Shown: positions 1 through 62,322, numbered from the stretch's first letter. The stretch is 64,000 bases of DNA from Candidatus Poribacteria bacterium (GCA_965242965.1 OZ251518.1:4224001-4288000); one strand, 5' to 3'. Numbers and translations are program-made. The notes: generated by a model from the letters alone, not told the origin.

Positions 1-1322
1 AACGCTGCGCGAGTTGTGAGCGAAGACCGGCGGTGATGCGTCACCCTCGGAGGCTCTGCGAGGCGTGCACCCGAAAGTCCGTTACCGGACGCATCGCCAA
101 ACGCAACGTCACCCCTGAGGACTTGCATCACTATTTGCAGGTGCTGCACCCCTGGGCTCCCTCCAGCCAAAACGCTCAAGGGGAATGGTGTCTCCAAGAC
201 TGGAGTTCGCTCTTTGAAACCTATCTAGAGGTTATGGGAAAAGCCGACTGCTATGCGCAGTCTACCGAGCACCTTGAAAAGATTGAGGGGCCCCGAGATC
301 TGGAGGATATCGCCACGGCAAGCAAACCCGGCGGTTTCGTGACATTCATCTACGCAGATGGCAACAACATGGGCAGCTATTTAGAGAATGTTGCAACACC
401 GGCACAGTACCGGCAGTTTTCGGAACGCGTGTTTCTCGCACTCCAGCAAGCGACATTTGACGCATTGGCGGTGCAGCTGACTCCCACTCAAAGGAATCGC
501 CACCCGTTTGAAATTGTCTCCATCGGCGGCGATGATCTGGTGCTAATTGTACCTGGCAGTAAGGCGTTTGAAGTCGTTCATGCTATCGGCGAAAACTTTG
601 ACAGGACGTTTGAGAGCCGCGCCCAGTTTGCTGAAACACTCCGTCCATCGCAACGATATACCCCGAAGGAATGGTTTGATAACCGAGAGATGCAACCCGC
701 GATAAGCCTCTCCCTTGGTTTTGTCATTGCAGCCGAACACACGCCCATTGCGTTCTTGGAGCATCTCGCCGGCAGCCTGCTGAAATCGGCGAAAAAACAA
801 GCGAAGACACTGAAAACACCGGACATCGGATACCTTGGCGGCACCGCGGATTTTCTGGTGCTGAAGTCGCTCTCCATGATTACCAGCGAACTGGGTGATT
901 TCCGGAAGCGGTTCTATCACTTCGGTGAAGAAGAAACGGACGCGCTCACGATGCGTCCCTTCACCTTGCATGAATTGGACGGCTTCATCAAAACAGTGCG
1001 CGCCTTCAAAGACAGCGAATTCCCGCGTTCCCAACTGTATCAACTGCGGCAATCGCTCCACCTCGGCAGGATGACATCAACACTAGAGTATCTCTACTTT
1101 CGCTGTCGGCTAAGCGATGGAAAAGGCGAAACACTGCAACGCGAGTTGGAAGAAAACTGGCAGGGAACTGAAAGAGGCGTGAACTTGGGACCGTGGTATC
1201 CAAAGGGCACGGAGCCGGAACGCTACGAAACGTTGCTGTTGGATCTGATTGAGGCGTATGATTTTATCGCCAGCACCAACGACGAAACGGAGAGGAACGC
1301 TAATGGCAGAAGCATCAATTGA
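1..1322 (+). CDS. cas10: Cas10 (type III large subunit), 5'-truncated by window edge
   Basis: Frame open from position 3 (RCASCE...CEAC Zn finger); Palm2 motifs FIYADGNNMG and SIGGDDL; first gene of a RAMP operon. Confidence 0.93.
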   Translation, partial: RCASCERRPAVMRHPRRLCEACTRKSVTGRIAKRNVTPEDLHHYLQVLHPWAPSSQNAQGEWCLQDWSSLFETYLEVMGKADCYAQSTEHLEKIEGPRDLEDIATASKPGGFVTFIYADGNNMGSYLENVATPAQYRQFSERVFLALQQATFDALAVQLTPTQRNRHPFEIVSIGGDDLVLIVPGSKAFEVVHAIGENFDRTFESRAQFAETLRPSQRYTPKEWFDNREMQPAISLSLGFVIAAEHTPIAFLEHLAGSLLKSAKKQAKTLKTPDIGYLGGTADFLVLKSLSMITSELGDFRKRFYHFGEEETDALTMRPFTLHELDGFIKTVRAFKDSEFPRSQLYQLRQSLHLGRMTSTLEYLYFRCRLSDGKGETLQRELEENWQGTERGVNLGPWYPKGTEPERYETLLLDLIEAYDFIASTNDETERNANGRSIN

Positions 1323-3171
1323 GAAACGGTGGAAAATTACTGCAACCGTTGATACCGCACTCTGTATCGGCGATAGCGGGGTTAGCGACACCTCCGCAGA
1401 CACGACAACCGTGAAGACGAGCGATGGGAGACTTTACATTCCTGCCTCAACCTTCAAGGGCACTTGGCGACACGCCTGTGAGGCAATTGCGCGCGGACAG
1501 GAACACTTCGTCTGCAACAGCCCACGTGCAGAAACGATGTGCGCGGAAGCCCACTGCGTTGTCTGTCAACTCTTCGGAGCACCGACGTTGGCGGCCAAAA
1601 TTTTCCTGAGCGATTTAGCCGCGGCGACAGAATTGGCGGCGCAATCTACCGAAATCCGAAACGGGGTGACTCTCAATCGCCAGCGAAGAACTGCTGAAGA
1701 ACAACGGCTCTATTTCACGGAAACGAGCTTATCCCACGCGGGCATTGCGTTTTCAGGGGATGTCACACTAGCGAATGAAGTTACGGAGGCACAGATTGAA
1801 CTGCTGAAGGCAGGACTTCAGGCCATTCACGCAATAGGAACGGGAAAATCACGCGGGCTCGGTTGGTTGAATATTGAAATTGAACGAGAGGAAAAGGAAA
1901 CTTTCGATGCAGGTTCATCAATAGAACCAGCTCTTTCAGAGGGGTTCACCGAGTTAGCTATTGAAGTCACCCTGCAGTCGCCGATGACTGCGGGTGGGCG
2001 CAAACCAACAGGACAAGCCGTTGAAGCGGTTCAATACGTTCGCGGTGGATTAATCCGCGGTGCTATAGCGAAGGCGTGGCTGGCAGCCCCTGAAAACGGT
2101 GAACCGGACGCTGACTTCCAGCAACTGTTCCTCAGTAACGAAGGCGGTATCTTCCGAAATTGTTATCCCGCCGCAAATGTCTTGCCCGCGACAGCAGTGG
2201 GATGCAAGGATTTCCCGGGGTTCCTCAGCGCAGGCGTTAGCGAAGCACACGGCATTTTTGATACGCTTTTGGAGCAACTCGCCTCGGAACACGCAAATTG
2301 GCTGATATCGCCCAATTGCCCGCATTGCGGCGGGCGCGTGGAAGCACAAACCGGGTTTTATGCACAACGAAACGATGCAACTTATGAACGGAAAACCGTC
2401 AACACTCGGCTGCTCACCCGCGTGGCTATCAACCGACATCGCAAGGTGGCAGAAGAGGGACTGCTCTATCACTTGACAGCCATTGATACGGTAGTAACTG
2501 AAAGCGGAACTGGCCGTTTGCACGGTTCCGCGCGAGTCCCATCACGCCTTGCAAGTCGCGTCGCGGAGACGCTGCAAAAACAGGTGCATCGCCTCGGCGG
2601 TGGCACATCGCGCGGGCTCGGCTGTGTCCACGTGAAGGTGCAACAATGCGAGCATCCCGACGCTTTGGCACAACGCATTCGCGATTTCAACGCCTTGTTG
2701 CAAGAGATATGGGAGGTGTATCGTCACCTCCCATCAGTAGCGATGGAAACGCTGGAAAGCACCTACTTCAGCATCGATTTGCAAGCCGACACACTGCTCA
2801 CTGCCGAAGATGGATGGCAACGCAGTATGGTGCTGAACGCGCCGATGCTGCAACAGATAACGGGATGTAATCTCCCAGTCAAACTCGTGCGCAGTTTCGC
2901 CAGTTACGATTATGTCAGCGGATGGAACGCGGCGTGGGGACTGCCAAAAGAGACAGCACTTGTCACGCGGATGGGGAGTGTCTTTGTGTTTCACACCCCG
3001 GATATTGATGCATGGATGCCGGTATTAAAGACGCTTGAAGAGCAGGGTATCGGCGCGCGGCGAGAAGAAGGGTTCGGGCAGATGTTGGTGTGTGCCCCGT
3101 TCCATCTCCGAACGCGAACAAAGGTTAAATGCGCAGCCCAGTGGCTGGGCAACGCGGAGGAATCGAAATGA
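1303..3171 (+). CDS. csx10: Cas7(Csm3-like)-Csx10/Cas5 RAMP fusion, type III-D
   Basis: N-terminal RAMP (YIPASTFKG, CxxC-LFG, GTGKSRGLG) fused to further RAMP domains (GGLIRGA, GGGTSRGLG, GIGARREEGFG); ATG 1303 overlaps cas10 end. Confidence 0.85.
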   Translation: MAEASIEKRWKITATVDTALCIGDSGVSDTSADTTTVKTSDGRLYIPASTFKGTWRHACEAIARGQEHFVCNSPRAETMCAEAHCVVCQLFGAPTLAAKIFLSDLAAATELAAQSTEIRNGVTLNRQRRTAEEQRLYFTETSLSHAGIAFSGDVTLANEVTEAQIELLKAGLQAIHAIGTGKSRGLGWLNIEIEREEKETFDAGSSIEPALSEGFTELAIEVTLQSPMTAGGRKPTGQAVEAVQYVRGGLIRGAIAKAWLAAPENGEPDADFQQLFLSNEGGIFRNCYPAANVLPATAVGCKDFPGFLSAGVSEAHGIFDTLLEQLASEHANWLISPNCPHCGGRVEAQTGFYAQRNDATYERKTVNTRLLTRVAINRHRKVAEEGLLYHLTAIDTVVTESGTGRLHGSARVPSRLASRVAETLQKQVHRLGGGTSRGLGCVHVKVQQCEHPDALAQRIRDFNALLQEIWEVYRHLPSVAMETLESTYFSIDLQADTLLTAEDGWQRSMVLNAPMLQQITGCNLPVKLVRSFASYDYVSGWNAAWGLPKETALVTRMGSVFVFHTPDIDAWMPVLKTLEEQGIGARREEGFGQMLVCAPFHLRTRTKVKCAAQWLGNAEESK

Positions 3172-3635
3172 GCCGAATAGAACACATTCCAGCGCAGCTG
3201 ACGACGGTGTTAATGGAAAAGGAAATTGGCTTGCGGATGGAAGTGCTTATCCCCAAGATGCAAAAGATGGCGAAAGACTACAACCTGCGCGAGGAACATT
3301 CGCCGTTCCGGAACGTGTTGAATGTCGCCACCGACGCAGCTGGCGGGATTGAGGTAACACAGAATTTTATCCGCTATCAACTCGGACGGAGCGGTGCCAA
3401 CCGGATATGGAGCAGCACCGTCGGCGGCAAAAAATTCGCTGTAGCATTGGTAGAGGCAATTGAAGGTTTACGCGACGAAGCGAAAATCGTCGTTGAGAGA
3501 ATGGGCGCGCATTTGGATACCAAGTTGGATGACGCATGGCTGCAGCGCGTGCATGTCCGCCTCATGCAGCTCTACCTCGGCAACCTCGTCCGTTACCAAG
3601 TGTTTCTGGCGAAGGAAAAAGGAGGAAGGAAGTAA
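3168..3635 (+). CDS. Cas11/Csm2-like small subunit
   Basis: ~155 aa alpha-helical protein (NFIRYQLGR, MQLYLGNLVR) between csx10 and cas7; 4-bp overlap with csx10. Confidence 0.75.
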   Translation: MSRIEHIPAQLTTVLMEKEIGLRMEVLIPKMQKMAKDYNLREEHSPFRNVLNVATDAAGGIEVTQNFIRYQLGRSGANRIWSSTVGGKKFAVALVEAIEGLRDEAKIVVERMGAHLDTKLDDAWLQRVHVRLMQLYLGNLVRYQVFLAKEKGGRK

Positions 3636-4447
3636 TGTTTGACACCTTTCATTCGCGACTCAATCTACAAGGCGAACTTGAAACGCTCACGGCGTTTCGC
3701 ATCGGTGCAGGCCGCTCAACCTCTCCTGTCAGCGCAGATCTGCCTGTCGTGCGCGATGCCGCGAATCTCCCCTACATCCCCGGCTCTAGTTTCAAGGGAG
3801 TGCTCCGTTCTTACGTTGAGAGCGTCATGCGGAGTTTGTCGGCTGAGACGCGCATCGTCTGCAATCCGACGGATAACCAGGTGCAGTGCATCACGTCAAA
3901 CCAGATGCAGAATCTTCGACAGGAGCGTGACAACCACCGATGGGACAGCGCGCGGTTCAGCGAAGAAATCTTGGCGCGAACCTGTTGGGTTTGTCAAGTC
4001 TTCGGTTCGCCTTGGTATGCATCCAAACTTCACATTCGCGACCTGCCCGTCCAGTCATCCCTCTGGTTTGGGCAATATCAGCAACGTGATGGTGTCGCGA
4101 TCGACCGCGATACCGAGACAGCCGCCAACCAGAAACTCTACGGTTACGAAGTCGTTCCAGCCGGCATCCGATTCGACTTTCGCGCCGTTGTTGATAACGC
4201 CGAGGATTGGCAACTCGGCCTGTTGTATACCGGGCTCGCTGCTTTTGAAAACAACCGTTTGACTCTTGGCGGTGGCAGCAGCCGCGGACTCGGGTTAGTC
4301 CACCTATCGCTTGCATCCGAATGCTACATCGACAAACAGCATCTGATGAAGCACCTGACAGCGGGATATGAAGGCGAAGCGGCAGAACGTCAGGCGTGGC
4401 TGCAAGCGTTTCACGCCAAAATCGAACAGCAATTGGAGACGCGGTAA
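3635..4447 (+). CDS. csm3: Cas7/Csm3-family RAMP
   Basis: RIGAG..SADLPVVRD, PYIPGSSFKG, CWVCQVFGS, GVAIDR, LGGGSSRGLG. Confidence 0.9.
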   Translation: MFDTFHSRLNLQGELETLTAFRIGAGRSTSPVSADLPVVRDAANLPYIPGSSFKGVLRSYVESVMRSLSAETRIVCNPTDNQVQCITSNQMQNLRQERDNHRWDSARFSEEILARTCWVCQVFGSPWYASKLHIRDLPVQSSLWFGQYQQRDGVAIDRDTETAANQKLYGYEVVPAGIRFDFRAVVDNAEDWQLGLLYTGLAAFENNRLTLGGGSSRGLGLVHLSLASECYIDKQHLMKHLTAGYEGEAAERQAWLQAFHAKIEQQLETR

Positions 4448-5394
4448 TGCACAAGCGGATTGTCAACCAAGCCACGATTGAACTCGCGATTTCGCCCGTG
4501 GGTCCACTGCTCATCAAAGCGGGCGACCAGGGGGCAGACCCGACGAAACCTGACATGGAGTTCGTTGAAACCTACCACGCGGGGGGCAGGAGCGTCTATC
4601 TCCCCGGGTCATCGCTCAAGGGCGCGATGAGGGCGCACTGCGAACGCATTGTCCGAACCATCGGCGGTGCAAACCCGAATGCAGGAAACGTTTGGACGTG
4701 TAACCCCTTGAAAGAGACAGAACCGTGCCGCAATTTGCAAACGGAGCATCAGGAAGATACCGCTGCTATCTACCGAAATTCATGCACTGTTTGCCAACTC
4801 TTCGGTAGCACCGATATCGCCGCACACGCACGTATCGCCGATGCCTATCCTGTTGAACTAGCCGACATTCAACTGGAAGAACGGAATGGTGTCGCGATCG
4901 ACCGCGTCTACGGTTCAGTAGCCTACGGCCCGTTCAACTTCCAAGTGCTGACAGCCGGCGAATTCATCACTAAAATTATGGTGAAAAACTTCACCACCGC
5001 GCAACTCGCGCTCATCGCCCTGGCTATCCGCGATTTTGCAGAACAGCGGGTTGGACTCGGTTTCGCCAAATCACGTGGGTTAGGACAGGTGAATATGAAA
5101 GTTACGCGCGTGGAAATCCGGTACCCAACTGTCATCGTTGAAGAGGGACAATTGCAAATACTTGGACTCCACCGCGGGCGATTTGGCGACAATTGCCTCA
5201 TCGGTGCCGGCGACTTCGTCAACACGGATGAGCGGCAGGCTTACGGGTTCCCCGAATCCGACACGGTTGAGGCAACCGTGCATGCCCAACCCGATGCAAT
5301 TCTCGGTGCCACTCTCGTTTTTGAGGAACCAGATGCCATCACAGCACTATGGCGAGGCTGTGTGCAGTCTTGGCGGGAAACTGTCAGCCTGTAA
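4447..5394 (+). CDS. Cas7/Csm3-family RAMP
   Basis: YLPGSSLKG, CTVCQLFGS, GVAIDR, LGFAKSRGLG; translationally coupled to the previous gene. Confidence 0.88.
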   Translation: MHKRIVNQATIELAISPVGPLLIKAGDQGADPTKPDMEFVETYHAGGRSVYLPGSSLKGAMRAHCERIVRTIGGANPNAGNVWTCNPLKETEPCRNLQTEHQEDTAAIYRNSCTVCQLFGSTDIAAHARIADAYPVELADIQLEERNGVAIDRVYGSVAYGPFNFQVLTAGEFITKIMVKNFTTAQLALIALAIRDFAEQRVGLGFAKSRGLGQVNMKVTRVEIRYPTVIVEEGQLQILGLHRGRFGDNCLIGAGDFVNTDERQAYGFPESDTVEATVHAQPDAILGATLVFEEPDAITALWRGCVQSWRETVSL

Positions 5395-5395
5395 C

Positions 5396-5417
5396 GGCGG
5401 ATGTCTTCACATCCGCC
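5396..5417 (+). other. Intergenic hairpin within the cas operon
   Basis: GGCGGATGT-CTTC-ACATCCGCC between cas7 and csx19; no U-tract. Confidence 0.45.
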
Positions 5418-5431
5418 CGTGAGGAGAACCG

Positions 5432-5920
5432 ATGGAGAAAGCAATTGTTGCAACCGCGCACGTGCCAGACGTGTCAACGCTCGTAGCGCAAATTGACACG
5501 CTCACGTTCGGCGAACGAACCTATTATCTGCTCCAACGGCCTGATTCCATCTCCGATTGGACAGCCGGCTGTCCTGACACCGCCGAAATTCAAAAATATG
5601 CCCTCGGCCGACTGTTTGGAGAAAACGGCGAACTGCGTTGGCAGAAAATCGATACCGGCTATACGCTACTTTGGCTTTCCGAAGGGGAATTGCCGGCAGG
5701 ATTTGCACCGATGGGGACATGGGAGATGACAAAATCCCCAGACCAGCTGCTACTCGGCGGCGGCGAGACGGAGCCGTGGCGGGATACGCGCATCCCCCGA
5801 AAACTAGCATATCCCATGGCATGGAGTCAGTCGCCAAAGGTGCGGGTAATTCAGTATCGTGACAGAGACTTGCAAACTATCCGGTTCACGCGCTATACCG
5901 GTTTCATTCAGGGAGGTTAA
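5432..5920 (+). CDS. csx19: Csx19-like type III-D subunit
   Basis: 162 aa with GRLFGENGELRW, RIPRKLAYP and a terminal VIQY..TRY pattern; typical position in III-D operons. Confidence 0.75.
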   Translation: MEKAIVATAHVPDVSTLVAQIDTLTFGERTYYLLQRPDSISDWTAGCPDTAEIQKYALGRLFGENGELRWQKIDTGYTLLWLSEGELPAGFAPMGTWEMTKSPDQLLLGGGETEPWRDTRIPRKLAYPMAWSQSPKVRVIQYRDRDLQTIRFTRYTGFIQGG

Positions 5921-5924
5921 AAAC

Positions 5925-6911
5925 ATGGGATACCCCCGACATGGCGGAAGAAGTGGCGGCAGACAGTCTCAGCAGCCAGACCCCAAACCTTTCGACTTCG
6001 TATCCCTGCCCCATCGTGTAGCTCGGAAAAAGCCCATTGGGCATGAACAGTATCACGCGGCACACCTAACAGGCCAGCTGCAAGGCACCCTTGAGGCACT
6101 CTCGCCTCTCCATATCGGCAGCGGTATCATTGAACTGGGGCAGGATGTTGAACTCATCAAAACGGTGGTGCGGACAGGCGGGAGAGTCGTCATACCCGGC
6201 AGCTCCCTCAAAGGGGCGATTCGGAGCATCGCCGAGGCGATTTCGGAGAGCTGCGTTTGCAAAGTCTCACGAGATGCACAACGCGCACTACCTAGAGACT
6301 TTCAGGAATGCAGACAGAAAGAACGCTTGTGCATCGCTTGTCGGATATTCGGTGCGATGGGATTTCAGGGAAACGTTGCAATCCAAGACGCACCCCACAT
6401 TCACGGACAAATCGTCACGGCACAGGTTCCCGAACTCTATCGCCCGCGAATCCGCCGAGGCGCGCGAGACGTGCCAGGGCGCAAATTTTACATGCACGGA
6501 CAAGTCGCCTCGGGCCGAACCCCTGTAGAGGCATGCGATGTCGGTTCCAGGTTCCGATTCATTATGCAGGTAGATAACCTGACGCAAGCGGAGTGGGGAC
6601 TCTTGCTTACAGCCTTAGGCCAACACCCCGACTATCCGTTCAAACTGAAGATGGGCGGAGCTAAGCCAGTCTGCTTCGGTTCAATGGACGTTCAAATAGA
6701 ACAGATCCAACTTGAAGACCAGGCTCGCGACCGGTATTTGGCGTGGGATGTGCGTCCGGAAGCCGCAAAAACCGGCGCGCCGTTGGAAATGTGGATACGC
6801 GACTGCATTGCGCAAGCAGCAGATTCACTCATCGTGCAGGATTTACTGGAAGACCTGGCTCAAATCCTGCGGCACCCAAACCAACGCAACTGCCCATCTG
6901 GGCTCTATTGA
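5925..6911 (+). CDS. Cas7-family RAMP (terminal III-D Cas7)
   Basis: PFDFVSL, SPLHIGSG, IPGSSLKG, CIACRIFG, GRKFY, KMGGAKPVCFG. Confidence 0.88.
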   Translation: MGYPRHGGRSGGRQSQQPDPKPFDFVSLPHRVARKKPIGHEQYHAAHLTGQLQGTLEALSPLHIGSGIIELGQDVELIKTVVRTGGRVVIPGSSLKGAIRSIAEAISESCVCKVSRDAQRALPRDFQECRQKERLCIACRIFGAMGFQGNVAIQDAPHIHGQIVTAQVPELYRPRIRRGARDVPGRKFYMHGQVASGRTPVEACDVGSRFRFIMQVDNLTQAEWGLLLTALGQHPDYPFKLKMGGAKPVCFGSMDVQIEQIQLEDQARDRYLAWDVRPEAAKTGAPLEMWIRDCIAQAADSLIVQDLLEDLAQILRHPNQRNCPSGLY

Positions 6912-6922
6912 GGAAGGCACTG

Positions 6923-7552
6923 ATGCAAACGCAGCAGATGAACGAAAAACTGTGGAAAATCGCCCACAAACTCGCGTTTGATTTAGTTGACTGGGGCACC
7001 GATCCCAATGAACTCGGCAAAGTCATCGCGTTTGTGCGTCGGCACCAAGACGATACCGACGCGAAATCGCGGCTCATGCTGCTGGTGCAGCGGTTGGCGA
7101 GTAGCCGCAACGCGCTTATCCGGAGCCGGCAAACACAGGGATTTTATCAAAATATTCAAGAAGCATTCAGCGAACATCTCCGCGATATCAGCAATCCCGC
7201 TGAAATCCTGCTTATTCTCGGCTGGAGCCTACGGTTGATGCGTTACTATCGTGCGGAACCGACGTTTGCTGTTGAATATGAATTTGAGCCGTCCCCGGTG
7301 AATTCACCTGCGCCGCCTACACCGAAACCGGATCCACCGAAACCGGATCCACCGAAGGTCAAGGCCGGGGACAGGGTAAATGCGACGGTTCTGAAGAAGG
7401 ATGGCTTCAAGGTGACAGTGCGATTAGAGACTGACGCACGCGAAGAAGTCTCCTTTGAAGGTCCTTATTATCCCGGCCTGGTCGGCGCACAAGTTAAGGT
7501 GAGGGTCCAGAGGGTTGATAAGGGCGGTCGGATAACCAAAGTCATTCCGTAG
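6923..7552 (+). CDS. Type III-associated protein: alpha-helical domain, Pro-rich linker, S1/OB-like C-terminus
   Basis: RBS AGGAAGG before ATG 6923; helical region ending ILGWSLRLMRYY; PSPVNSPAPPTPKPDPPKPDPP linker; basic beta-rich tail KVKAGDRVNATV...VKVRVQRV. Confidence 0.7.
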   Translation: MQTQQMNEKLWKIAHKLAFDLVDWGTDPNELGKVIAFVRRHQDDTDAKSRLMLLVQRLASSRNALIRSRQTQGFYQNIQEAFSEHLRDISNPAEILLILGWSLRLMRYYRAEPTFAVEYEFEPSPVNSPAPPTPKPDPPKPDPPKVKAGDRVNATVLKKDGFKVTVRLETDAREEVSFEGPYYPGLVGAQVKVRVQRVDKGGRITKVIP

Positions 7553-7581
7553 AAAATACGCTTGAGTCTGGAGGTAAAGGC

Positions 7582-8832
7582 ATGATTTTTAGAAATGCAG
7601 TTGCTGAAAGGGATGGCATCAATCCGCGCGAGGAACTGGAGAAATTCGTGATCGGTAATCGCGCGCACATTAAACAGAGTCGTGTTAATGAGAAAATCGG
7701 CCATGAGTTAAAATCCTGCGACGAAGATGTTTGGCTCACGGAACTGGTTCGGACTCAGAATCCTTATACTGTTCTTGAGGCATGCTTTGCCTCGGGGCGA
7801 TTGCATAATTTGGCTGCCAACCGCCGCTGGGTTAGTCTTGACTCGGAATATGAAGGACGCGAACTTGTGGGGGAAATTCTAGAGGCGTTGGGCTTTAGAA
7901 AGGAAGTAAAGCCTTCGGGTCTTACGCAAATTCGAGAAGAAATCGATCCGCGCTTGGAACCTGCCGAAGTTGACCCACAACGGTTTGCAGCAGAAGAAGC
8001 CCTTGACTTTGCCGCCGGAATGGGAACAGTCATGGAAGCATTGTTGGATAAATTATTCCGTTTCCATAGCGAAACGTTCCTCCGGCATGCTGAACTAACA
8101 GCGGCGGACATTGACAAACTACGTGATCAGTATCGGCGAACGCGCCCACGAACGCTAGGTCGTTATGTGGGACTCCAGAATGACGAAAAGGGCGATAAAC
8201 GTGGATTTTTGGCAAGACTAATGAAATTTGCAGAAGAAGACGCAGCACTTATCGCCTACTGTGACAGGTACTTTCAGCGGATAGTGCCCTTGGACGAGAG
8301 TGAGATTGCTGCTGTTGGTATGTTCACGATATACCGCAACTGGATTGTCCATAATATATGGGACTGGACCCAATACCCGCGCATCCTAAATAATGCTCAA
8401 ACTAACTTGTTAAGCATGGATGAGGCAACTCGCGGCGAATGGGAGAGAAGTTGGCAGCAGGTAACTGAAGCGGTTGATTGGGCAAAGAAAAACGGGGATC
8501 CCGAACCCGCTCTTCCAAAACGTGAGATGCTCCAAAGGATGGCTGTTTTCTTCAGGGCCTTCCTTAAATCGCTATCCCAAGGAATCTACCCCAAAGTCAT
8601 TGTGATGCAGTCCTACGTCGTCGACAATTATGGAACTCATCAAATTACCGCGGAGGACGATGCAGGAGAGACAGTCTTCCTTACCGACTGTGAATTCGAG
8701 CCATTTACGGAGTTCTACTATCTGGCACATACCAATCTTGTTGGCATTGAACCAATTCTCGTGAGGAAAGATGAACTAGGGAAGTGGGGAATTCAACAGG
8801 ATAGCATGGACGCATCACAGAAGGAGGCTTAA
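7582..8832 (+). CDS. Uncharacterised CRISPR-embedded protein with HEPN-like RxxxxH motif
   Basis: GGAGG RBS; 416 aa; MEALL...TLG...YRNWIVH pattern; beta-rich C-terminus; no recognisable CARF or SAVED domain. Confidence 0.65.
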   Translation: MIFRNAVAERDGINPREELEKFVIGNRAHIKQSRVNEKIGHELKSCDEDVWLTELVRTQNPYTVLEACFASGRLHNLAANRRWVSLDSEYEGRELVGEILEALGFRKEVKPSGLTQIREEIDPRLEPAEVDPQRFAAEEALDFAAGMGTVMEALLDKLFRFHSETFLRHAELTAADIDKLRDQYRRTRPRTLGRYVGLQNDEKGDKRGFLARLMKFAEEDAALIAYCDRYFQRIVPLDESEIAAVGMFTIYRNWIVHNIWDWTQYPRILNNAQTNLLSMDEATRGEWERSWQQVTEAVDWAKKNGDPEPALPKREMLQRMAVFFRAFLKSLSQGIYPKVIVMQSYVVDNYGTHQITAEDDAGETVFLTDCEFEPFTEFYYLAHTNLVGIEPILVRKDELGKWGIQQDSMDASQKEA

Positions 8833-8835
8833 AGC

Positions 8836-9843
8836 ATGCCGAAAAACGTGCTCTTATCATCACTCGGATTATCACCCGCTGTTGTCACCGAAACGATTGA
8901 TGCCCTTCAAAACACCGGCATCCGAATTGACACGGTGGTGCTGCTCACCACTGCAAACGAACGGATTGTCAACACATACATTCCGCTACTGCAGGACGAC
9001 TTTGCCGATACTTACGGGGGAAGAATTGAACTCACCTATGCTCCCATTACGAACAATGACATTTGGACAGCACAGGATAATCTGGAATTCATCGGGTTAG
9101 CCACCGCGTATCTGAATACCCATCGGAAGCGGGGAGATAACGTCTATGTCAGCATCGCAGGCGGCAGGAAAACGATGTCCGCCGCTTTAGCAATTGTGAC
9201 GCAACTTTTCGGCGCGAAAGGGTTGTATCATGTCCTCACCCTGGAAGAGGTCGAGAAACAACACCACCCTTACGAATCGCTGAGAAACGCACCTGAAAAA
9301 CGTCGCGAGGCTCTTCACCCAGATGTCCAGTTGATGGAGCTCGTCTCCATTCCCGTCGTCGGGCTGTTTCCGTATCTGAGCCAAATCACCGGTGTTTTGC
9401 AGGGAGATACCGCTCAGGCTGAAGCGAATGTGACAGATTTGCTTCGTGACAATGAACTCATTGATGACGAGGGAAAGATAACGCCGGCAGGCAGCAACCT
9501 CTTGAAAATCTTGAGCGAAGTGGAAACCGCGCCGGAACCCTCCACTATCCCGCCGAACCAAAAAGAGATTCGCGTCCCCCGCCATAATATCCCGAAACAG
9601 GAAGAGGAGAAGCTGCGGACTATCGCCAACCGGATATGCTATGATCCGTTTGTGAATCGCATTGCAACCACGGATTGGAACTCGCAAACGCAGCAGCCTT
9701 ACCGAATCAACCCGGATAATTCGATTACCCTCTTTATCCCGAAGACCACGAAGGGGTTAACGCTTAGAATCTTTACCACGGCGAACACACGAGCGCAAGC
9801 CGAATACGTCGCGCAAAGATTGTTGCTCGCCGTGAGCCGATAA
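8836..9843 (+). CDS. CARF (NE0113/Csx14-like) + wHTH + C-terminal putative nuclease domain
   Basis: LLSSLGLSPAVVTET and SIAGGRKTMS CARF motifs; LRDNELIDDEGKITPAG wHTH-like segment; ~95 aa alpha/beta tail ending FTTANTRAQAEYVAQRL. Confidence 0.85.
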   Translation: MPKNVLLSSLGLSPAVVTETIDALQNTGIRIDTVVLLTTANERIVNTYIPLLQDDFADTYGGRIELTYAPITNNDIWTAQDNLEFIGLATAYLNTHRKRGDNVYVSIAGGRKTMSAALAIVTQLFGAKGLYHVLTLEEVEKQHHPYESLRNAPEKRREALHPDVQLMELVSIPVVGLFPYLSQITGVLQGDTAQAEANVTDLLRDNELIDDEGKITPAGSNLLKILSEVETAPEPSTIPPNQKEIRVPRHNIPKQEEEKLRTIANRICYDPFVNRIATTDWNSQTQQPYRINPDNSITLFIPKTTKGLTLRIFTTANTRAQAEYVAQRLLLAVSR

Positions 9844-9874
9844 CACCATTGAAATCGGAGAGACGGAGAGAATC

Positions 9875-10864
9875 GTGTCTGCACAGAAACCGTTATCAAA
9901 CGCCTTGCGAATGACAAACTTCCAATTCGCCCGATACCGCTTCACCTATACCGTCCAAGAACCGCTACGGATGCCACCCGACAAAGGCAACATCTTCCGC
10001 AGCCGACTCGGATACACACTGCGCGACATCACCTGCCTGGGACACGAAAACGCATGCGCAAAGCAGTGCCAACACCCAGAACGGTGCGTCTACTCGCAAT
10101 GTTTTGAAACACCCGTGCCGGAAAACGCGCCGTTTCTCCGCGGACAACCCTTCGCGCCGCATCCGTTCATACTCGAACCACCGCTCACAGGGAAACAGCA
10201 TTACGCTCCCGGCGATACCTTCGCCTGCACACTCATCCTCATCGGCAGCGCCATCAACCTGCTCCCGTGGCTAGCGTTCACCTTCAATGAAATCGGCAAA
10301 CGCCGCATCGGACTTCGCGGCCGGCGCGGGAAGTGTGAACTCAACACCATTGAGAGTCTTCCTGCGCGCGGCACCGAGCCCCCCGAAACGATTTATACCT
10401 CCCAAACCGAGAGGCTAATGGGAGCAGGTAGGCTTCTCCGCCTTGACGATGTGCTACGCGGCGCGCCGCACGTCACCGACACGCTTACACTTGATTTCCG
10501 AACGCCGACGAGCCTCAAAGTGGAGGGACGCTGGATGCGCGACGTGACGTTTGAATTGCTCATCCGCAATCTCCTCCGACGCATCCGGTTCTTGAGTTAC
10601 TTCCATTGTGGCGAAGACCTGGGTGTGGATGCACATGCTTTGCTGAAGGCGGCGAGGGCTGTCACGCATACCTCGCACTTGCAATGGGTGCGGAAGGAAC
10701 GCCGGTCTTTCCGAACAAAGCGTGTTGTCCCGATGGGTGGGTTCGTTGGTAAAGTTCGGTTCGCGGGAGAGTTGTCCCCGTTTCTGCCGCTGATTTTCTT
10801 GGGAGAATATCTCCACATTGGGCATCACACTGCATTTGGGTTCGGGCAGTATCGCATCTGTTAA
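9875..10864 (+). CDS. cas6: Cas6 pre-crRNA endoribonuclease
   Basis: PHPFILEPP, MGGFVG and C-terminal G-loop HIGHHTAFGFGQY; adjacent to the array; start GTG 9875 or ATG 9911. Confidence 0.93.
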   Translation: MSAQKPLSNALRMTNFQFARYRFTYTVQEPLRMPPDKGNIFRSRLGYTLRDITCLGHENACAKQCQHPERCVYSQCFETPVPENAPFLRGQPFAPHPFILEPPLTGKQHYAPGDTFACTLILIGSAINLLPWLAFTFNEIGKRRIGLRGRRGKCELNTIESLPARGTEPPETIYTSQTERLMGAGRLLRLDDVLRGAPHVTDTLTLDFRTPTSLKVEGRWMRDVTFELLIRNLLRRIRFLSYFHCGEDLGVDAHALLKAARAVTHTSHLQWVRKERRSFRTKRVVPMGGFVGKVRFAGELSPFLPLIFLGEYLHIGHHTAFGFGQYRIC

Positions 10865-11085: not shown

Positions 11086-12694
11086 GTTTGGATACACCGT
11101 CCCGGTTGAAGGGAATAGAAACTATTAATAATATAGCCGAATGGGATCGGAATTCTTAAGTTAGGAAACGCCTTCCCGTTTGAAGGGAATAGAAACTGAC
11201 CACCAGTGCATTCCGCTGCCACCATGCCAGCAGACCCGTTTGGAAACGCCGTCCCGGTTGAAGGGAATAGAAACACAAACGAAGCCTTGGCTGCCAGCGC
11301 AGAGACATCCGTTCGGAAACGCCGTCCCGGTTGAAGGGAATAGAAACGCCGCAATCATACCAGCAGACGCTCGGAATCTTGCAGTTTGGAAACGCCGTCC
11401 CGTTTGAAGGGAATAGAAACGTCAAGGTCCGATGGTTAAGTTGGTGCGAGGACCAGGTTTGGAAACGCCGTCCCGGTTGAAGGGAATAGAAACAGTATCC
11501 GTCCTTTCTTGATGGCGACTGAATGCCCCGTGCATCGTTCGGAAACGCCGTCCCGTTTGAAGGGAATAGAAACTTTACTTTTTTGCCGATTGCAACGCCT
11601 CGACAATCCTGTCGTTTGGAAACGCCGTCCCGTTTGAAGGGAATAGAAACTTTAGCCATCCACTATTCCAAGTGTCATAATACTTTTGGAAACGCCTTCC
11701 CGGTTGAAGGGAATAGAAACTTCCCGATGTAGCCTTCTTCGCGGGCTTGGTCTAGCGTAAGTTTGGAAACGCCTTCCCGGTTGAAGGGAATAGAAACGTG
11801 CCAGCCTGATCGACGGCTGCATACGCATTCTTGACTTGTTTGGAAACGCCTTCCCGGTTGAAGGGAATAGAAACAACTGGCTAAATCAAGTTCGGATGAG
11901 AGCGTTAAGATATGTTTGGAAACGCCTTCCCGGTTGAAGGGAATAGAAACTCGTAAGACACTTGTGATACCTTGTCCCCGTTGAGTTTGGAAACGCCTTC
12001 CCGGTTGAAGGGAATAGAAACTTTCCTTCGGTCAGCCTTAAGTTGACATTCCCCGTTGAGTTTGGAAACGCCTTCCCGTTTGAAGGGAATAGAAACTGAT
12101 AATGGCTCGGCATCGCTATCCGTCTTGACGTTTGGAAACGCCTTCCCGGTTGAAGGGAATAGAAACCCATGATGAACCGCAGCTAGCTCTTTATTGCCAT
12201 CGTTTGGAAACGCCTTCCCGTTTGAAGGGAATAGAAACTTGCCTCGACCTCGTTGAAATTCATATCAAATCCCAAGTGTTTGGAAATGCCTTCCTGTTTG
12301 AAGGGAATAGAAACGCGAGGGAAGCCCGCTGCGCTACCTCTTTCGCAAGGTTGAGTTTGGAAACGCCTTCCCGGTTGAAGGGAATAGAAACTTTAGAATC
12401 CGGAGATTTTCTTCGGCATCAAAAAGCCGAGTTTGGAAACGCCTTCCCGGTTGAAGGGAATAGAAACCCAGTCGTCTTACAGGTTAGCGCATGATTAATT
12501 ATCGTTCGGAAACGCCTTCCCGGTTGAAGGGAATAGAAACATAGCCGCACACCGATGCTGTCCACCGGCAAGCCACAAGTTTGGAAACGCCTTCCCGGTT
12601 GAAGGGAATAGAAACTCATAGTACTCGATCGTAGGTCCATATTTGTCGCAATAGCATGTTCAGAAACGCCTTCCCGCTTGAAGGGAATAGAAAC
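11086..12694 (+). CRISPR. CRISPR array, 22 repeats / 21 spacers (33-43 nt)
   Basis: 37-bp consensus GTTTGGAAACGCCTTCCCGGTTGAAGGGAATAGAAAC; ATAGAAAC 3' end and upstream leader give + orientation. Confidence 0.98.
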
Positions 12695-19409: not shown

Positions 19410-21527
19410 TTATCCGCTGCTGGCATCCTCCTCTTCCGGCAGATCCTGAGAGGTCCGGTAATTGTGAGCTTCAATGCCCAGTTGCTGGAAGTTATTTGCC
19501 GTTTTGACAATCGCCATCGCTTTTCGGCGTTCGTCCTCTGAGACAAAGTCAACTAGTTCCTCCGCGCGTTGAATCATCTCAGCTACAAAAGGAGGCGGAG
19601 TCAACTGGGTTACAGTTCCTGTTTCCGGATCTAGTTCCTCCAGCAATGTCTCCTGGGCTGCGCTTTGTGCCTCTGGCGTTAGCGCAATGATAAGCATCGC
19701 ATCAGTCTCCGTGGAATCGGCCAAGAATTCGGATCCCTCTAAAGTCCTCACATCAGCACCGGCTGAATCAATCGATTCTTGAGTCTCACTTAACGCGGCG
19801 GTTATCTCATCGGCATCAAGTGCAACTTCACCTGCTGCACTAGCGGCACTAGCGATTTCGCCGAGGTCGCTTAGGAGATCAATAAGACCTGCCCCGGGTA
19901 TTAAAGCCAATGCCACCCCAATCCCTTTCCTGACCAGGCGCCGCCGTGCCTTGCGCTGGACTTCGTCGCGGAAGTTGCTATATTCCTGGACGGTTTCCTC
20001 GTAGTTCTCGCGTAGACCCTGGTAGTTCTGCTCAAGGCCTTGGTAATGTCCGACCAGCCGCTTGGAACGATTGGACTCACTCCGAAGTGCGGCACCGCAA
20101 ACTTGTAGTGATACCTCACAGAGATAGAGCCCCCAGAGAGCCGCTTGGTTACTCTGAGTTACCTCGTCTAAATTGGTTTCAAGGTTCGCACAGCGTTGGT
20201 ATTCCTGAGCCAGTTGGGTTTCTAGCGTTTCGCGATGCTGTCGGACTTGCCCAAGTTCGTTTTCCAAGGTCTCGCTGCGCTGGCGTTCCTGCGAAAGTTC
20301 GTTTTCCAAGGTTGCGCATTGCTCGCGCGCCTCCGCAAGATCGCTTTCCAAACTTTCACACCGCTGGCGTTCCTGCGAAAGTTGGCTTTCTAGCGTTAAG
20401 CACCATTCGCGTACTTGCGCAAGTTCGGTTTCCAAATTCCCGTACTGTTCAAGTGCTTGTGTGAGTTCGCTTTCCAATTCTGCGCATCGCTCACGTGCCT
20501 GTGCCAATTCGCTGGAGATACGCGCGTTGAGTTGATTGGCCTCCTCCAGGGCCTGGACATGACGTGCAATCTCCCCGTTAGCGTGATTCAAGTCACTTTC
20601 CAAGGTTGCGTTCGCTCGTTCAAGTTCCACGTGCCGCGCGTGTGCCTGTGACAAGTTGCTTTCCAGGGTCGCGTTCGTCTGCTCCAATGTTGCGATTTGG
20701 GTATTCGCGTGTTCCAAACCGCTTTCCAAAGTTGCGTTATTCCGTTGGAGTTCGACATTCCGCGCGTTTGACTGCGACAAATCGGTGTCTAAGGTTGCGT
20801 TTCTCTGTTCCAGGTCTGCACAACGCGTGTTCGCGCGATTCAAGTCGCTTGTAAGATTCACGTTGGTTTGCTCAAGTTCAACGTTGCGCGTGCTTGTCTG
20901 CGCCAAATCACTTTCCAGGTTCGCGTTCGCCTGTTCCAGCCCCGCAATTTGGGTATTCGCGTGTGCCAAACCGCTGTCTAAGGTGGCGTTAGTTTGTTCG
21001 AGTTCAACATGCCGCGCGTGTGCCTGCGTCAAGCTGCTTTCCAAGTTCGCGTTCGTCTGTTCAAACTCTGCACAACGCGTGTTCGCGTGATTCAAGTCGC
21101 TTGTAAGATTCGCGTTGGTTTGTTCAAGTTCAACATGCCGCGCGTGTGCTTGCGTCAAGTTGCTTTCCAGGGTCGCGTTCGTCTGTCCCAGTTCGGCGAT
21201 TTGGGTATTCGCGTCTGCCAAACCGCTGTCTAAGGTTGCGTTATTCCGTTCAAGTGCCACGTTCCGCGTGTTTGCCGCCGACAAATCGCCGTCTAAAGTG
21301 GTGTTCCTCTGTTCCAGATCCGCGTTCTGTGTATTCACCAGCGACAAGTTGCTCGTTAAACTCGCGTTCGTCTGCCTGAGTTCCTCCAATTCTCCAGAGA
21401 GACGTTCATTGCGGGTAGCGGCATGAGAGAGGTTATTGGTGAGGTCATTCTTCTTTGAGAATAACCATGCTCCCACTCCCACACAAATAATGAGTCCTAT
21501 GAGAAGCACGATAGTTACGGGATCCAT
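19410..21527 (-). CDS. Membrane-anchored long coiled-coil repeat protein
   Basis: GGAGG RBS; N-terminal TM helix; 21-aa repeats (LEQTNATLESNLTQAHARHVE) then 14-aa repeats (LESQLSQERQRCES); hydrophobic GIGVALALIPGAGL segment near the C-terminus. Confidence 0.88.
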   Translation of the reverse strand: MDPVTIVLLIGLIICVGVGAWLFSKKNDLTNNLSHAATRNERLSGELEELRQTNASLTSNLSLVNTQNADLEQRNTTLDGDLSAANTRNVALERNNATLDSGLADANTQIAELGQTNATLESNLTQAHARHVELEQTNANLTSDLNHANTRCAEFEQTNANLESSLTQAHARHVELEQTNATLDSGLAHANTQIAGLEQANANLESDLAQTSTRNVELEQTNVNLTSDLNRANTRCADLEQRNATLDTDLSQSNARNVELQRNNATLESGLEHANTQIATLEQTNATLESNLSQAHARHVELERANATLESDLNHANGEIARHVQALEEANQLNARISSELAQARERCAELESELTQALEQYGNLETELAQVREWCLTLESQLSQERQRCESLESDLAEAREQCATLENELSQERQRSETLENELGQVRQHRETLETQLAQEYQRCANLETNLDEVTQSNQAALWGLYLCEVSLQVCGAALRSESNRSKRLVGHYQGLEQNYQGLRENYEETVQEYSNFRDEVQRKARRRLVRKGIGVALALIPGAGLIDLLSDLGEIASAASAAGEVALDADEITAALSETQESIDSAGADVRTLEGSEFLADSTETDAMLIIALTPEAQSAAQETLLEELDPETGTVTQLTPPPFVAEMIQRAEELVDFVSEDERRKAMAIVKTANNFQQLGIEAHNYRTSQDLPEEEDASSG

Positions 21528-22199
21528 TTTCAGCCTCCTCACTTCTGCGTGGCCGGGATTGTTTTGCGTGCCCAACTGTCAGAAGTGTGAAACGGTACCG
21601 GATTAAAAACACCTGCCAACGTCCAGTCACTTTCGCGTTCGTCATCGATGCTTCTCCGTTTACCAACCCTATCAGCGTTTTTTGCTGCAGACGCGCGGCG
21701 GACGCGCGCGACCGCGCCTCGCCGAGGCAAAAAACGCGCAGAAGTATCCAACGAAAACAAGGGATAACAAACAGAGGAGGTGAAAACGGAAGCGAGTGCA
21801 ACCAGAAATCTGGCAGGGAAAACATGCACCGGGGAAGGAATCCCGATGCAACGAAAATAACCCGCCACGCAAAGAATGCGTGCGGGATTGAAGACAGCAT
21901 GACGACGAAAGTCGCCGCTGTTAAGTGAATAAACTTTGCTTAACGCCTGTGGGTGTCGGGGGGGGTCGAGCCTCCCCTCTGGGCATTAAGCCGAACGGGA
22001 ACTCGTGACGGCGCGACAAACGGGCCAGACGCGCACCGGATGTGCGGCATCTCGCGGGGCCCGGGCAGGTCTACGGCGACCTTTTTCGCAATGGAAGAAT
22101 CAATTCGCTGGTTCACGGTATCGTTCCTTGTTCAGCAAGTTTGCGGATTTCAGTCTCATGGTGGCGCGTTTTTTCGCGTGCATCACCACGTTGGCATTA

Positions 22200-48381: not shown

Positions 48382-48968
48382 GAGGATATTTCATATTTCG
48401 ATTTCTTCCCGGTAGGAGAGCCCTCCTGGTCTCGATGTTCCCGTAGCGCGGGGGCCTGTCCCCCGCGAGCGTTGGATTACGCGTGCACGCACGCAGGCGA
48501 GGGACAGGCCCTCGCCCTACGGTGAGGGGGCGTTTTTTATCGTAGCGCGGGGGCCTGTCCCCCGCGAGCTCCATCGTCACGATGTGTGTTTCCCCCTCTG
48601 TAGTTTGTGATCGCCTGATCACAAACGGGTCAGGATCAGGCGATCCTGAACTACAGAGCCTGGCGCGCGAACGATGGCGAGGGACAGGCCCTCGCCCTAC
48701 GGTGAGGGGGCGTTTTTTTCGTAGCGCGGGGGCCTGTCCCCCGCGAGCTCCATCGTCACGATGTGTGTTTCCCGATCTGTAGTTTGTGATCGCCTGATCA
48801 CAAACGGGTCAGGATCAGGCGATCCTGAACTACAGAGCCTGGCGCGCGAACGATGGCGAGGGACAGGCCTTCGCCCTACGATGAAGGGGGGTTTCTGCCG
48901 CCCTATTACATCGAGACCAGGAGGTCTCTCCTACCGGAAGATGTCGAGACGCGGGAGGGCGCGCCTAC
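48382..48968. repeat. REP cluster with 179-bp tandem duplication
   Basis: Near-identical unit at 48541 and 48720; MITE-like end GAGGATATTTCATA at 48382. Confidence 0.88.
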
Positions 48969-59773: not shown

Positions 59774-59785
59774 CCGTTCTCATTA

Positions 59786-60066
59786 CCGTAGCGCGGGGGC
59801 CTGTCCCCCGCGATCTTCCGGTAGACCGCGGCATGGCGAGGGACAGGCCCTCGCCCTACGGAGCAGAAGATGTCCCATTACCGTAGCGCGGGGGCCTGTC
59901 CCCCGCGATCATTGGGGCGCGCGGACGATGGCGAGGGACAGGCCCTCGCCCTACGGTAATCAAGACCGGCTCGTCTTGGTAGGAGGGACATCCTTGTCCC
60001 GATAGGTGCATCGAGACCGGGAGGTCTCTCCTACCCGAAGAAGTCGAGACCAGAGGTCTCGCCTAC
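59786..60066. repeat. REP cluster
   Basis: Two REPIN pairs plus GGGACATCCTTGTCCC and GAGACC.GGAGGTCTC hairpins. Confidence 0.85.
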
Positions 60067-61872: not shown

Positions 61873-62322
61873 GAGGGTGTTTCATATTTCGATGCCTCTG
61901 GGGTAGGCGAGACCTCCCTCCGTCCGTAGCGCGGGGGCCTGTCCCCCGCGATCGTTGGGATGCGCGGACGCTGGCGAGGGACAGGCCCTCGCCCTACGGT
62001 GAAAGTGGGCTTTTCTCCGTCCGTAGCGCGGGGGCCTGTCCCCCGCGATTGTTGGGATGCGCGTGCATGAACGATGGCGAGGGACAGGCCCTCGCTACGG
62101 TGCGGGGGTGGCGTTTTTTATCGTAGCGCGGGGGCCTGTCCCCCGCGATCGTTAGATTGCGCGTGCACGCACGATGGCGAGAAAACCCGAGACGTTTTTT
62201 CCGTAGCGGGAACGATGGCGAGGGACAGGCCCTCGCCCTACGATGAAGGGGGGGCTTTCTGCCGCCGCTGCTCCGGTCGGCGCGCCACCCTATTGCATCG
62301 AGACCAGGAGGTCTCTCCTACT
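61873..62322. repeat. MITE end + REP cluster
   Basis: GAGGGTGTTTCATA end followed by three REPIN-like units. Confidence 0.8.

Follow-up and report, generated by a model that had tools for sequence, protein, structure and literature searches.

The ancillary nucleases of type III CRISPR systems, as described in the portions of the literature covered here, are equipped with a dedicated sensor domain (CARF, SAVED or another), and a conserved HEPN-type protein that is encoded within a type III operon and has no such sensor poses the question of how a potentially toxic RNase would be gated. This question is raised by a stretch of 64,000 nucleotides (nt) from Candidatus Poribacteria bacterium (GCA_965242965.1 OZ251518.1:4224001-4288000; hereafter the window), in which a type III-D operon includes a gene for a 416-residue protein, designated P0001, that contains the motif RNWIVH. 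Its sequence conservation, predicted structure and genomic distribution favour, on balance, the interpretation that P0001 is a CARF-less, dimeric, HEPN-type accessory RNase, which would constitute an optional nuclease arm of one type III-D clade. The novelty of P0001 probably lies in being a HEPN-type type III ancillary nuclease with no recognised sensor and with new dimerisation domains. The original prediction for this gene, made from the DNA alone, described a HEPN-motif effector of the cas operon in which either a terminal domain would act as a new second-messenger sensor or the RNase would be switched in trans by the adjacent CARF protein or by the Cas10 complex. That prediction is supported in part: the motif, the lack of a sensor and the link to cas10 are upheld, the HEPN fold and the trans switch by the CARF protein are not, and docking on the Cas10 complex is one candidate mode of control.

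Conservation and operon position of P0001

The P0001 gene starts with ATG downstream of the csx21 stop codon (7550-7552), possesses its own ribosome-binding site (Table 1) and is separated by 3 nt from the next open reading frame (ORF), which encodes a CARF domain and begins at 8836, in agreement with the arrangement originally described. The gene can be considered real because the frame stays open in full-length homologues that share 33-87% identity. All of the sequence landmarks named in the original prediction are located in the translated protein, namely MEALL (residues 151-155), TLG (191-193), RNWIVH (252-257), IYPKVIV (335-341) and FYYLAHTNLVGIEPIL (378-393); since MEALL spans residues 151-155, its glutamate is E152. 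The impression that the gene is more AT-rich than the core genes is likewise borne out, as its GC content (0.482) and its GC content at third codon positions (GC3, 0.477) are the lowest of the 11 operon genes, the other ten showing a GC of 0.515-0.571 and a GC3 of 0.551-0.648 and the window as a whole a GC of 0.546.

P0001 has no family match in Pfam, NCBIfam, PADLOC or PHROGs. A word-indexed search of 5.8 billion proteins returned 15 matches, and a search of 1.84 billion representatives returned 39 at E<=0.001, 22 at E<=1e-10 and 12 at E<=1e-30; judged by these sequence searches, the family is rare and unnamed. The only names attached to cluster members are 'O-acetyl-ADP-ribose deacetylase', given to a Macro fusion, and that of a hypothetical protein from a Blastocatellia metagenome-assembled genome. 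No further loci of the family were found in two scans of metagenome contigs or in viral contigs, and tblastn of plasmids with P0001 and its Macro-fused relative P0043 gave no matches. Among PDB sequences, the single-protein search yielded one match at E 0.91, and the one match of the profile (E 0.038) was an unrelated fertilization protein, which was rejected. One variant of 337 amino acids (aa), 74% identical to P0001, diverges past about residue 310.

The motif highlighted in the original prediction is conserved. R252 and N253 are invariant among 20 full-length members, and among the 32 family members that cover the region, RN is present in all and the complete pattern [YF]RN-x3-5-H (Rx4-6H spacing) in 28; the histidine is also retained in 13 of 13 distant relatives spanning this region. 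The position of E152 is occupied by E in 15, D in two, Q in two and A in one of 20 sequences in one alignment (A5), and by E in 13 of 17, or by E or D in 15 of 17, in another (A3). Four metagenomic homologues (P0012, P0019, P0022 and P0025) keep YRN or FRN and have lost the histidine, with YRNLTLKNPDEG-like sequences at this site; this subgroup is possibly a catalytically inactive branch of the family.

In a sample of 176 genomes from the phylum of the window, the P0001 family was detected in nine, all from one family-level group, as seven full-length copies and two short fragments; a first, smaller sample of 61 genomes had contained six positive genomes. The locus of genome G004 is contained in one separately found Poribacteria contig, and the two were counted once. 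All seven intact copies with readable context lie inside type III-D operons, on the same strand and directly after csx21, which bears out the expectation that homologues co-occur with cas10 loci, in this case within one bacterial family. The order cas10-csx10-cas11-csx7-csx7-csx19-RAMP-csx21-homologue is common to all seven loci as far as the contigs reach, the L010 contig extending no further than csx21, the homologue and a csm6-type gene, and no csx19 being called in L015. Csx21 itself is listed, in the part of PMC6546367 covered here, only as 'Type III-D associated'.

The region downstream of the homologue is variable, consisting of one or more CARF genes followed in three loci (the window, L014 and L015) by cas6. 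The genes at this position encode CARF5 in the window, CARF7-RelE and CARF4-PD-(D/E)xK in L001, a truncated CARF1 in L008, Csm6 and Csx1 in L009, Csm6 in L010, Csx16, Csx1 and CARF4-PD-(D/E)xK in L014, and Csm6 in L015. Because the downstream CARF family varies between loci, the adjacent CARF protein is not plausible as a dedicated switch, and the proposed control of P0001 in trans by this protein finds no support; the constant neighbour is csx21, on the upstream side.

The gene is also dispensable. csx21 was found in 24 of the 176 genomes (18 near-full-length matches), and inspection of 13 csx21-bearing loci showed the P0001 homologue to be intact in seven, reduced to a remnant in two and absent from four. 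In the two orthologous operons with remnants (L016 and L017), 29-49 aa persist precisely in the space that separates csx21 from the following gene; in the four loci without any remnant (L049-L052), csx21 abuts CARF genes. A fixed slot with this pattern of presence and loss makes P0001 an optional accessory, and the gene displays the attributes of type III accessory genes, being co-oriented with the cas genes in the operons of several genomes and not required by the core.

P0001 homologues diverge faster than their surroundings. They are 33-62% identical to one another, compared with 61-85% for Csx21, with P0001 the lower in 21 of 21 pairs of the seven loci; RAMP (63-85%) and Csx7 (64-79%) are better conserved as well, and in one genome pair the flanks are 85% identical and the P0001 homologues 39%. 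Low identity combined with low GC3 points to fast divergence or allele exchange. Separately, public assembly contigs break at both borders of the CARF gene (8819-8848 and 9834-9944), the summed depth of this gene exceeds that of its flanks, and one run contains a weak joint 7470->9917 (side 30, likeness 85) that connects the csx21 end with the cas6 start. These breaks and the joint hint that the csx21-cas6 stretch is a strain-level variable cassette. With respect to Csx21, its C-terminal 60-80 residues have counterparts within longer open frames, of 621-808 aa, from four related genomes (G035:C1:1377370-1377576, G015:C4:2492072-2492308, G105:C60:44386-44781 and G174:C1:5127115-5127522), as a tandem pair in two of them, which indicates that a Csx21-like domain is also fused into larger proteins.

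Predicted fold, dimer and distant relatives

The AlphaFold2 model of full-length P0001, based on a 24-row alignment, has a mean predicted local distance difference test (pLDDT) score of 88 and a predicted template modelling (pTM) score of 0.82, and a separate model of the core (residues 112-336) reaches a pLDDT of 92. Residues 1-335 are predicted to form only helices, and residues 336-403 a small domain of five strands (338-347, 353-359, 364-367, 377-381 and 392-395) plus one helix, which matches the beta-rich C-terminus anticipated in the original prediction. Within the core, helices in the segment 174-231 lie between the long helix that bears E152 and the helix that ends with the motif, and the latter is followed by a loop (258-264) and a further helix (265-277).

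The four-helix HEPN fold is characterized, in the part of its description covered here (Anantharaman et al. 2013, PMC3710099), by an Rx4-6H motif that closes helix 3 where the loop to helix 4 begins, with a polar residue (N, D or H) behind the R, by an acidic residue in helix 2 (often Ex3[KR]) and by inserts between helices 2 and 3. The P0001 family shares the Rx4-6H spacing and the polar residue after R, E152 supplies an acidic residue in an upstream core helix, and in the predicted secondary structure the motif falls at the end of a putative helix 3 with inserted helices between helices 2 and 3. Two further leads point in the same direction. Alignment with hhalign against 26 RiboL-PSP-HEPN proteins of related genomes gave sub-threshold local matches (probability 4-6%, P 0.006-0.009) that are collinear, placing the E152 helix on the N-terminal helices and YRNxxxH on RRNQIAH, and the nearest language-model neighbours of the core in the Atlas are RiboL-PSP-HEPN clusters (0.90 and 0.89), followed by RnlA-DBD and DUF4145. 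Because of the motif and topology, membership of P0001 in the HEPN group is taken as probable, the fold searches themselves having recovered no HEPN protein.

A recognised sensor domain is absent from P0001, as originally predicted. No CARF or SAVED match was obtained in Pfam, NCBIfam or PADLOC, with SAVED searched in Pfam and PADLOC, while the same libraries find CARF in six neighbouring proteins; moreover, the structural model contains no alpha/beta domain.

The terminal domains are predicted to serve a different function. The homodimer prediction of P0001 scored 0.66, compared with 0.00 for the best of three controls; of proteins solved as same-chain pairs, 20 of 30 reach this mark, as does 1 of 23 with a single-chain structure, counts that are only rough here because a custom alignment was used. 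The runs share at least 90% of contacts, with a partner pLDDT of at least 84. The predicted interface comprises residues 1-3, 16, 39-61, 105, 108, 342-352, 366-375 and 383-389, such that the strand 342-352 pairs with its twin and, together with 366-375 and 383-389, packs on the N-domain of the partner. Residues conserved in at least 90% of sequences account for 10 of 44 interface positions and 43 of 372 elsewhere (one-sided Fisher P 0.038). The prediction assigns the dimer interface to the conserved N- and C-terminal domains.

The weaker matches among the 1.84 billion representatives are proteins of 574-963 aa that align with the N-domain (approximately residues 15-115) and the C-domain (approximately 313-400) of P0001. 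Among 10 long relatives scanned, seven carry an N-terminal Macro domain, one a Ser/Thr kinase domain and two nothing above the cut-offs; seven shorter relatives scanned contained no family above its cut-off. The Macro-fused proteins (P0039, P0041, P0043, P0045, P0047, P0050 and P0052) and the kinase fusion (P0053) are true homologues of P0001, sharing the N-domain, RNxxxH and the C-terminal beta domain (E 7.5e-6 to 1e-3). BLASTP aligned residues 38-399 of P0001 with P0039 at 2e-12, placing YRNWIVH on LRNQLAH. R252 is unchanged throughout an alignment of 17 sequences, in which N253 and H257 reach at least 90% conservation, and every one of the 13 distant relatives spanning the region has RNxxxH (in one case as RAxxxH). 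Unlike P0001, these relatives bear either a Ser/Thr kinase or an N-terminal Macro domain, the latter usually with a second, upstream RNRxxH (5 of 7), and a profile search seeded with the Macro-fused set retrieved six proteins, all Macro-bearing. A dimerisation role would explain why the terminal domains travel together in the Macro and kinase fusions. Since these domains form the predicted dimer interface and recur in the fused relatives, a role as a cyclic oligoadenylate (cOA) sensor is unlikely, which weakens the proposal of a new second-messenger sensor in one of the terminal domains. That a CRISPR accessory gene has relatives fused to Macro and kinase domains is a hint that the effector module can be reused.

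Competing explanations for the role of P0001

In the favoured scheme, the terminal domains would lock P0001 into a symmetric homodimer holding two HEPN-like cores, and a trigger would have to unite or open the two RNxxxH sites before RNA could be cleaved. The cleavage chemistry would be metal-independent and leave 2',3'-cyclic phosphate ends, as in other HEPN enzymes. The leading candidates for this trigger are the target-bound III-D complex, which P0001 might contact via Csx21, and a ligand or protein that binds to the dimeric platform of terminal domains; the neighbouring CARF protein is not a plausible trigger, and a cOA pocket of the CARF or SAVED type probably is not one either. With P0001, a system whose cOA signals already reach interchangeable CARF effectors would gain an RNase arm, and the rapid divergence and repeated loss of the gene are in keeping with an accessory engaged in an arms race more than with a core subunit.

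Several observations weigh against this scheme. P0001 has no profile match to a described HEPN family, and the HEPN fold anticipated in the original prediction stays unconfirmed by three Foldseek searches, a Pfam scan and two hhalign tests. The full model had no PDB match at E<0.001 and no HEPN protein among its top 50; the core model, also searched against BFVD, likewise had nothing at that threshold, and its 50 best matches included no HEPN chain. None of the 24 members of alignment A2 showed a HEPN family in Pfam at E<=10, and hhalign against four Csm6 proteins gave a probability of 0.2. Residues 252-257 lie outside the predicted dimer interface, so that the composite HEPN site, the usual active form, is not predicted. 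Four of the 32 members hold RN without the histidine (YRNLTLKNP-like), and at least one subclade may therefore work without catalysis. Finally, genomic context is readable only in one bacterial family, of sponge-associated type.

Some of these points would be accommodated if P0001 were a non-catalytic, or even non-HEPN, helical adaptor of the III-D complex, whose dimer would sit on Csx21 or the complex and modulate assembly, target handling or cyclase output, with the RN motif binding RNA or a ligand instead of cutting. The fold and profile searches that recovered no HEPN, the histidine-less members that keep the rest of the protein, the invariable adjoining of csx21 within the core gene block and a predicted dimer that does not unite the motifs all suit this role. 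It is nevertheless unlikely, given the typical catalytic constellation of an invariant R and N, a histidine in nearly all close and in all distant relatives and a conserved upstream Glu, and given that six of the 13 loci have no intact copy and that csx21 occurs without P0001. It is slightly less likely that a HEPN-type dimer acts as an off-switch, degrading cOA like a ring nuclease and resetting the CARF effector of the locus. This function would be consistent with the fixed slot beside interchangeable cOA-dependent effectors in all seven loci, with the GGDD motif of Cas10 and with the title of a cited reference, according to which Csm6 degrades cyclic hexa-adenylate (cA6) with both its CARF and HEPN domains; against it stand the absence of a recognised cOA-binding domain in P0001, the joint presence of a homologue and Csx16 in L014, the pairing of P0001 in the window with a Csx14/Crn1-like CARF protein, and the Macro and kinase fusions among its relatives, which give no hint of a function in cOA turnover.

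Two of the modes of control in the original prediction, a sensory terminal domain or an adjacent CARF protein acting in trans, are improbable. Signalling by cOA in this system, the two conserved terminal domains with no assigned fold and a symmetric dimer that could offer a pocket on its two-fold axis speak in their favour; the change of CARF family across the seven loci, the predicted use of the terminal domains for dimerisation, their recurrence in Macro- and kinase-fused relatives and the lack of any CARF or SAVED match or alpha/beta domain speak against them. Least probable of all is a selfish toxin-type gene that occupies a recombination-prone operon slot and has no role in CRISPR immunity. 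Although the lowest GC and GC3 of the operon, an identity discordant with the flanks (39% vs 85%), repeated loss among loci and assembly contigs that break at the 3' border of P0001 would be expected of such an element, its position and orientation are constant in all seven loci with tight or overlapping junctions, each genome has one match with none found elsewhere in these genomes, and no antitoxin-like partner accompanies it.

Beyond the favoured reading of P0001 as a dimeric HEPN-type accessory RNase, a more far-reaching version is conceivable, if doubtful: the family would represent a new class of type III effector without CARF or SAVED, in which a dimeric HEPN RNase is switched by physical coupling to the target-bound III-D complex (via Csx21) or by its own ligand-binding terminal platform, a platform that would be reused with Macro or kinase heads in non-CRISPR immunity. 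In the covered parts of the literature on CARF-less HEPN proteins in type III or III-D systems and on Macro-HEPN proteins, the P0001 family is undescribed, and supplementary tables, such as Table S1 of PMC6546367 or the effector tables of PMC11229360, may list it unnamed. No account of it appears in the portions of PMC6546367, PMC11229360, PMC12669027 and PMC13294483 covered here.

Locus features and comparison with known systems

The operon runs on one strand in the order cas10 (GGDD)-csx10-cas11-csx7-csx7-csx19-RAMP-csx21-P0001-CARF-cas6-array, with gaps of 3-29 nt (Table 1). The full Cas10 of this genome comprises 881 aa, with GGDD at residue 617 (L018:12678-15323). Directly upstream of cas10, beyond the window start, lies a gene for a 595-aa Csx1-like CARF-HEPN-CARF protein (L018:10700-12487; PADLOC 9.8e-148). 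A GGDD-bearing Cas10 together with this Csx1-like protein means that the locus already owns a canonical cOA-activated RNase, and by its gene content the system looks like a normal cOA-signalling type III-D system with an existing CARF-HEPN effector. The CARF protein downstream of P0001 gives weak matches to Csx14 and to the ring nuclease Crn1, and its C-terminal part resembles CARF7-DUF2103 tails; the protein is a possible ring nuclease or, alternatively, an effector whose output is unassigned.

Table 1. Coordinates of P0001, its predicted domains and the surrounding type III-D features in the window
Feature	Coordinates	Strand	Basis
Type III-D core: cas10 (C-terminal part; cut by window start), csx10 (cas7-cas5 fusion), cas11 (Csm2-like), two csx7, csx19, TIGR03986-like RAMP	33..6911 (shared span)	+	
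csx21, upstream neighbour	6932..7552 (alternative start 6743)	+	PADLOC Csx21, 4.7e-37
GGAGG ribosome-binding site	7570..7574	+	7 nt ahead of ATG, read from sequence
P0001 gene, putative HEPN-like accessory protein, 416 aa	7582..8832	+	ORF list, translation, homologues
N-terminal helical domain, residues 1-113, conserved NPYxVLExCF and GFxxEVKPxG	7582..7920	+	AlphaFold2, conserved columns
All-helical core, residues 114-335, putative HEPN domain with helical insert	7921..8586	+	Core model
E152 codon, conserved acidic residue in long helix 137-169	8035..8037	+	
RNWIVH (R252-H257), Rx4H motif, C-terminal end of helix 239-257	8335..8352	+	
C-terminal domain, five beta strands and one helix, residues 336-403	8587..8790	+	AlphaFold2
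CARF protein (CARF5 / Cas_NE0113 / Csx14-like)	8836..9843	+	Pfam Cas_NE0113 1.6e-34; PADLOC CARF5 1.1e-61
cas6	9875..10864	+	PADLOC Cas6, 2e-88
CRISPR array, 37-nt repeats, period 70-75 nt, two blocks	11160..12238	.	Tandem Repeats Finder

The two blocks of the CRISPR array (11160-11347 and 11914-12238) are approximately 570 nt apart and use slightly different repeat variants (GTTAGGAAAC... and GTTTGGAAAC...). Elsewhere in the window, repeated GC-rich palindromic units of the GGCGAGGGACAGGCCCTCGCC and GCGCGGGGGCCTGTCCCCCGC types occur at 48496-48894, 59781-59956 and 61918-62181, in a layout like that of repetitive extragenic palindromic (REP) sequences or miniature inverted-repeat transposable elements (MITEs). 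An ORF of 721 aa on the minus strand (19410-21575) consists largely of tandem repeats of 42, 63, 126 and 252 bp (20253-21317) and probably encodes a repetitive coiled-coil-like protein.

Among known systems, the closest parallel is provided by the CARF-HEPN proteins Csm6 and Csx1. Like P0001, they belong to type III operons, have a helical domain with an R-N-x3-H type motif, are dimeric (in the case of P0001, by prediction) and behave as optional, interchangeable accessories. P0001 differs from them in having no CARF domain, including the N-terminal Rossmann-like CARF of Csm6 and Csx1, and no match to the Csm6 HEPN family PF09670, and in its predicted dimerisation via novel N- and C-terminal domains. 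Its homologues co-occur with Csm6 or Csx1 in the same loci and do not replace them.

Stand-alone HEPN RNases offer a second comparison. RiboL-PSP-HEPN proteins (PF18735), like P0001, are sensor-less and have RNxxxH near a helix end and an upstream acidic residue; HepT and RnlA are further stand-alone HEPN RNases of conflict systems. PF18735 gives no match to P0001, though it matches another gene of the same genome, and P0001 is twice as long, with two extra domains, a helical insert and a location embedded in a cas operon. Stand-alone RiboL-PSP-HEPN genes are present in 70 of the 176 genomes of the phylum, including one in the genome of the window (G000:C1:926075-926581).

With respect to gating, a working analogy is found in type III-E systems, where Csx29 (TPR-CHAT) is described, in the part of PMC13294483 covered here, as an accessory enzyme that has no cOA sensor and is regulated through its placement on the effector complex. 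For P0001, docking on the III-D complex is a proposal, and Csx29 itself is a protease, not an RNase, and unrelated to P0001 in sequence.

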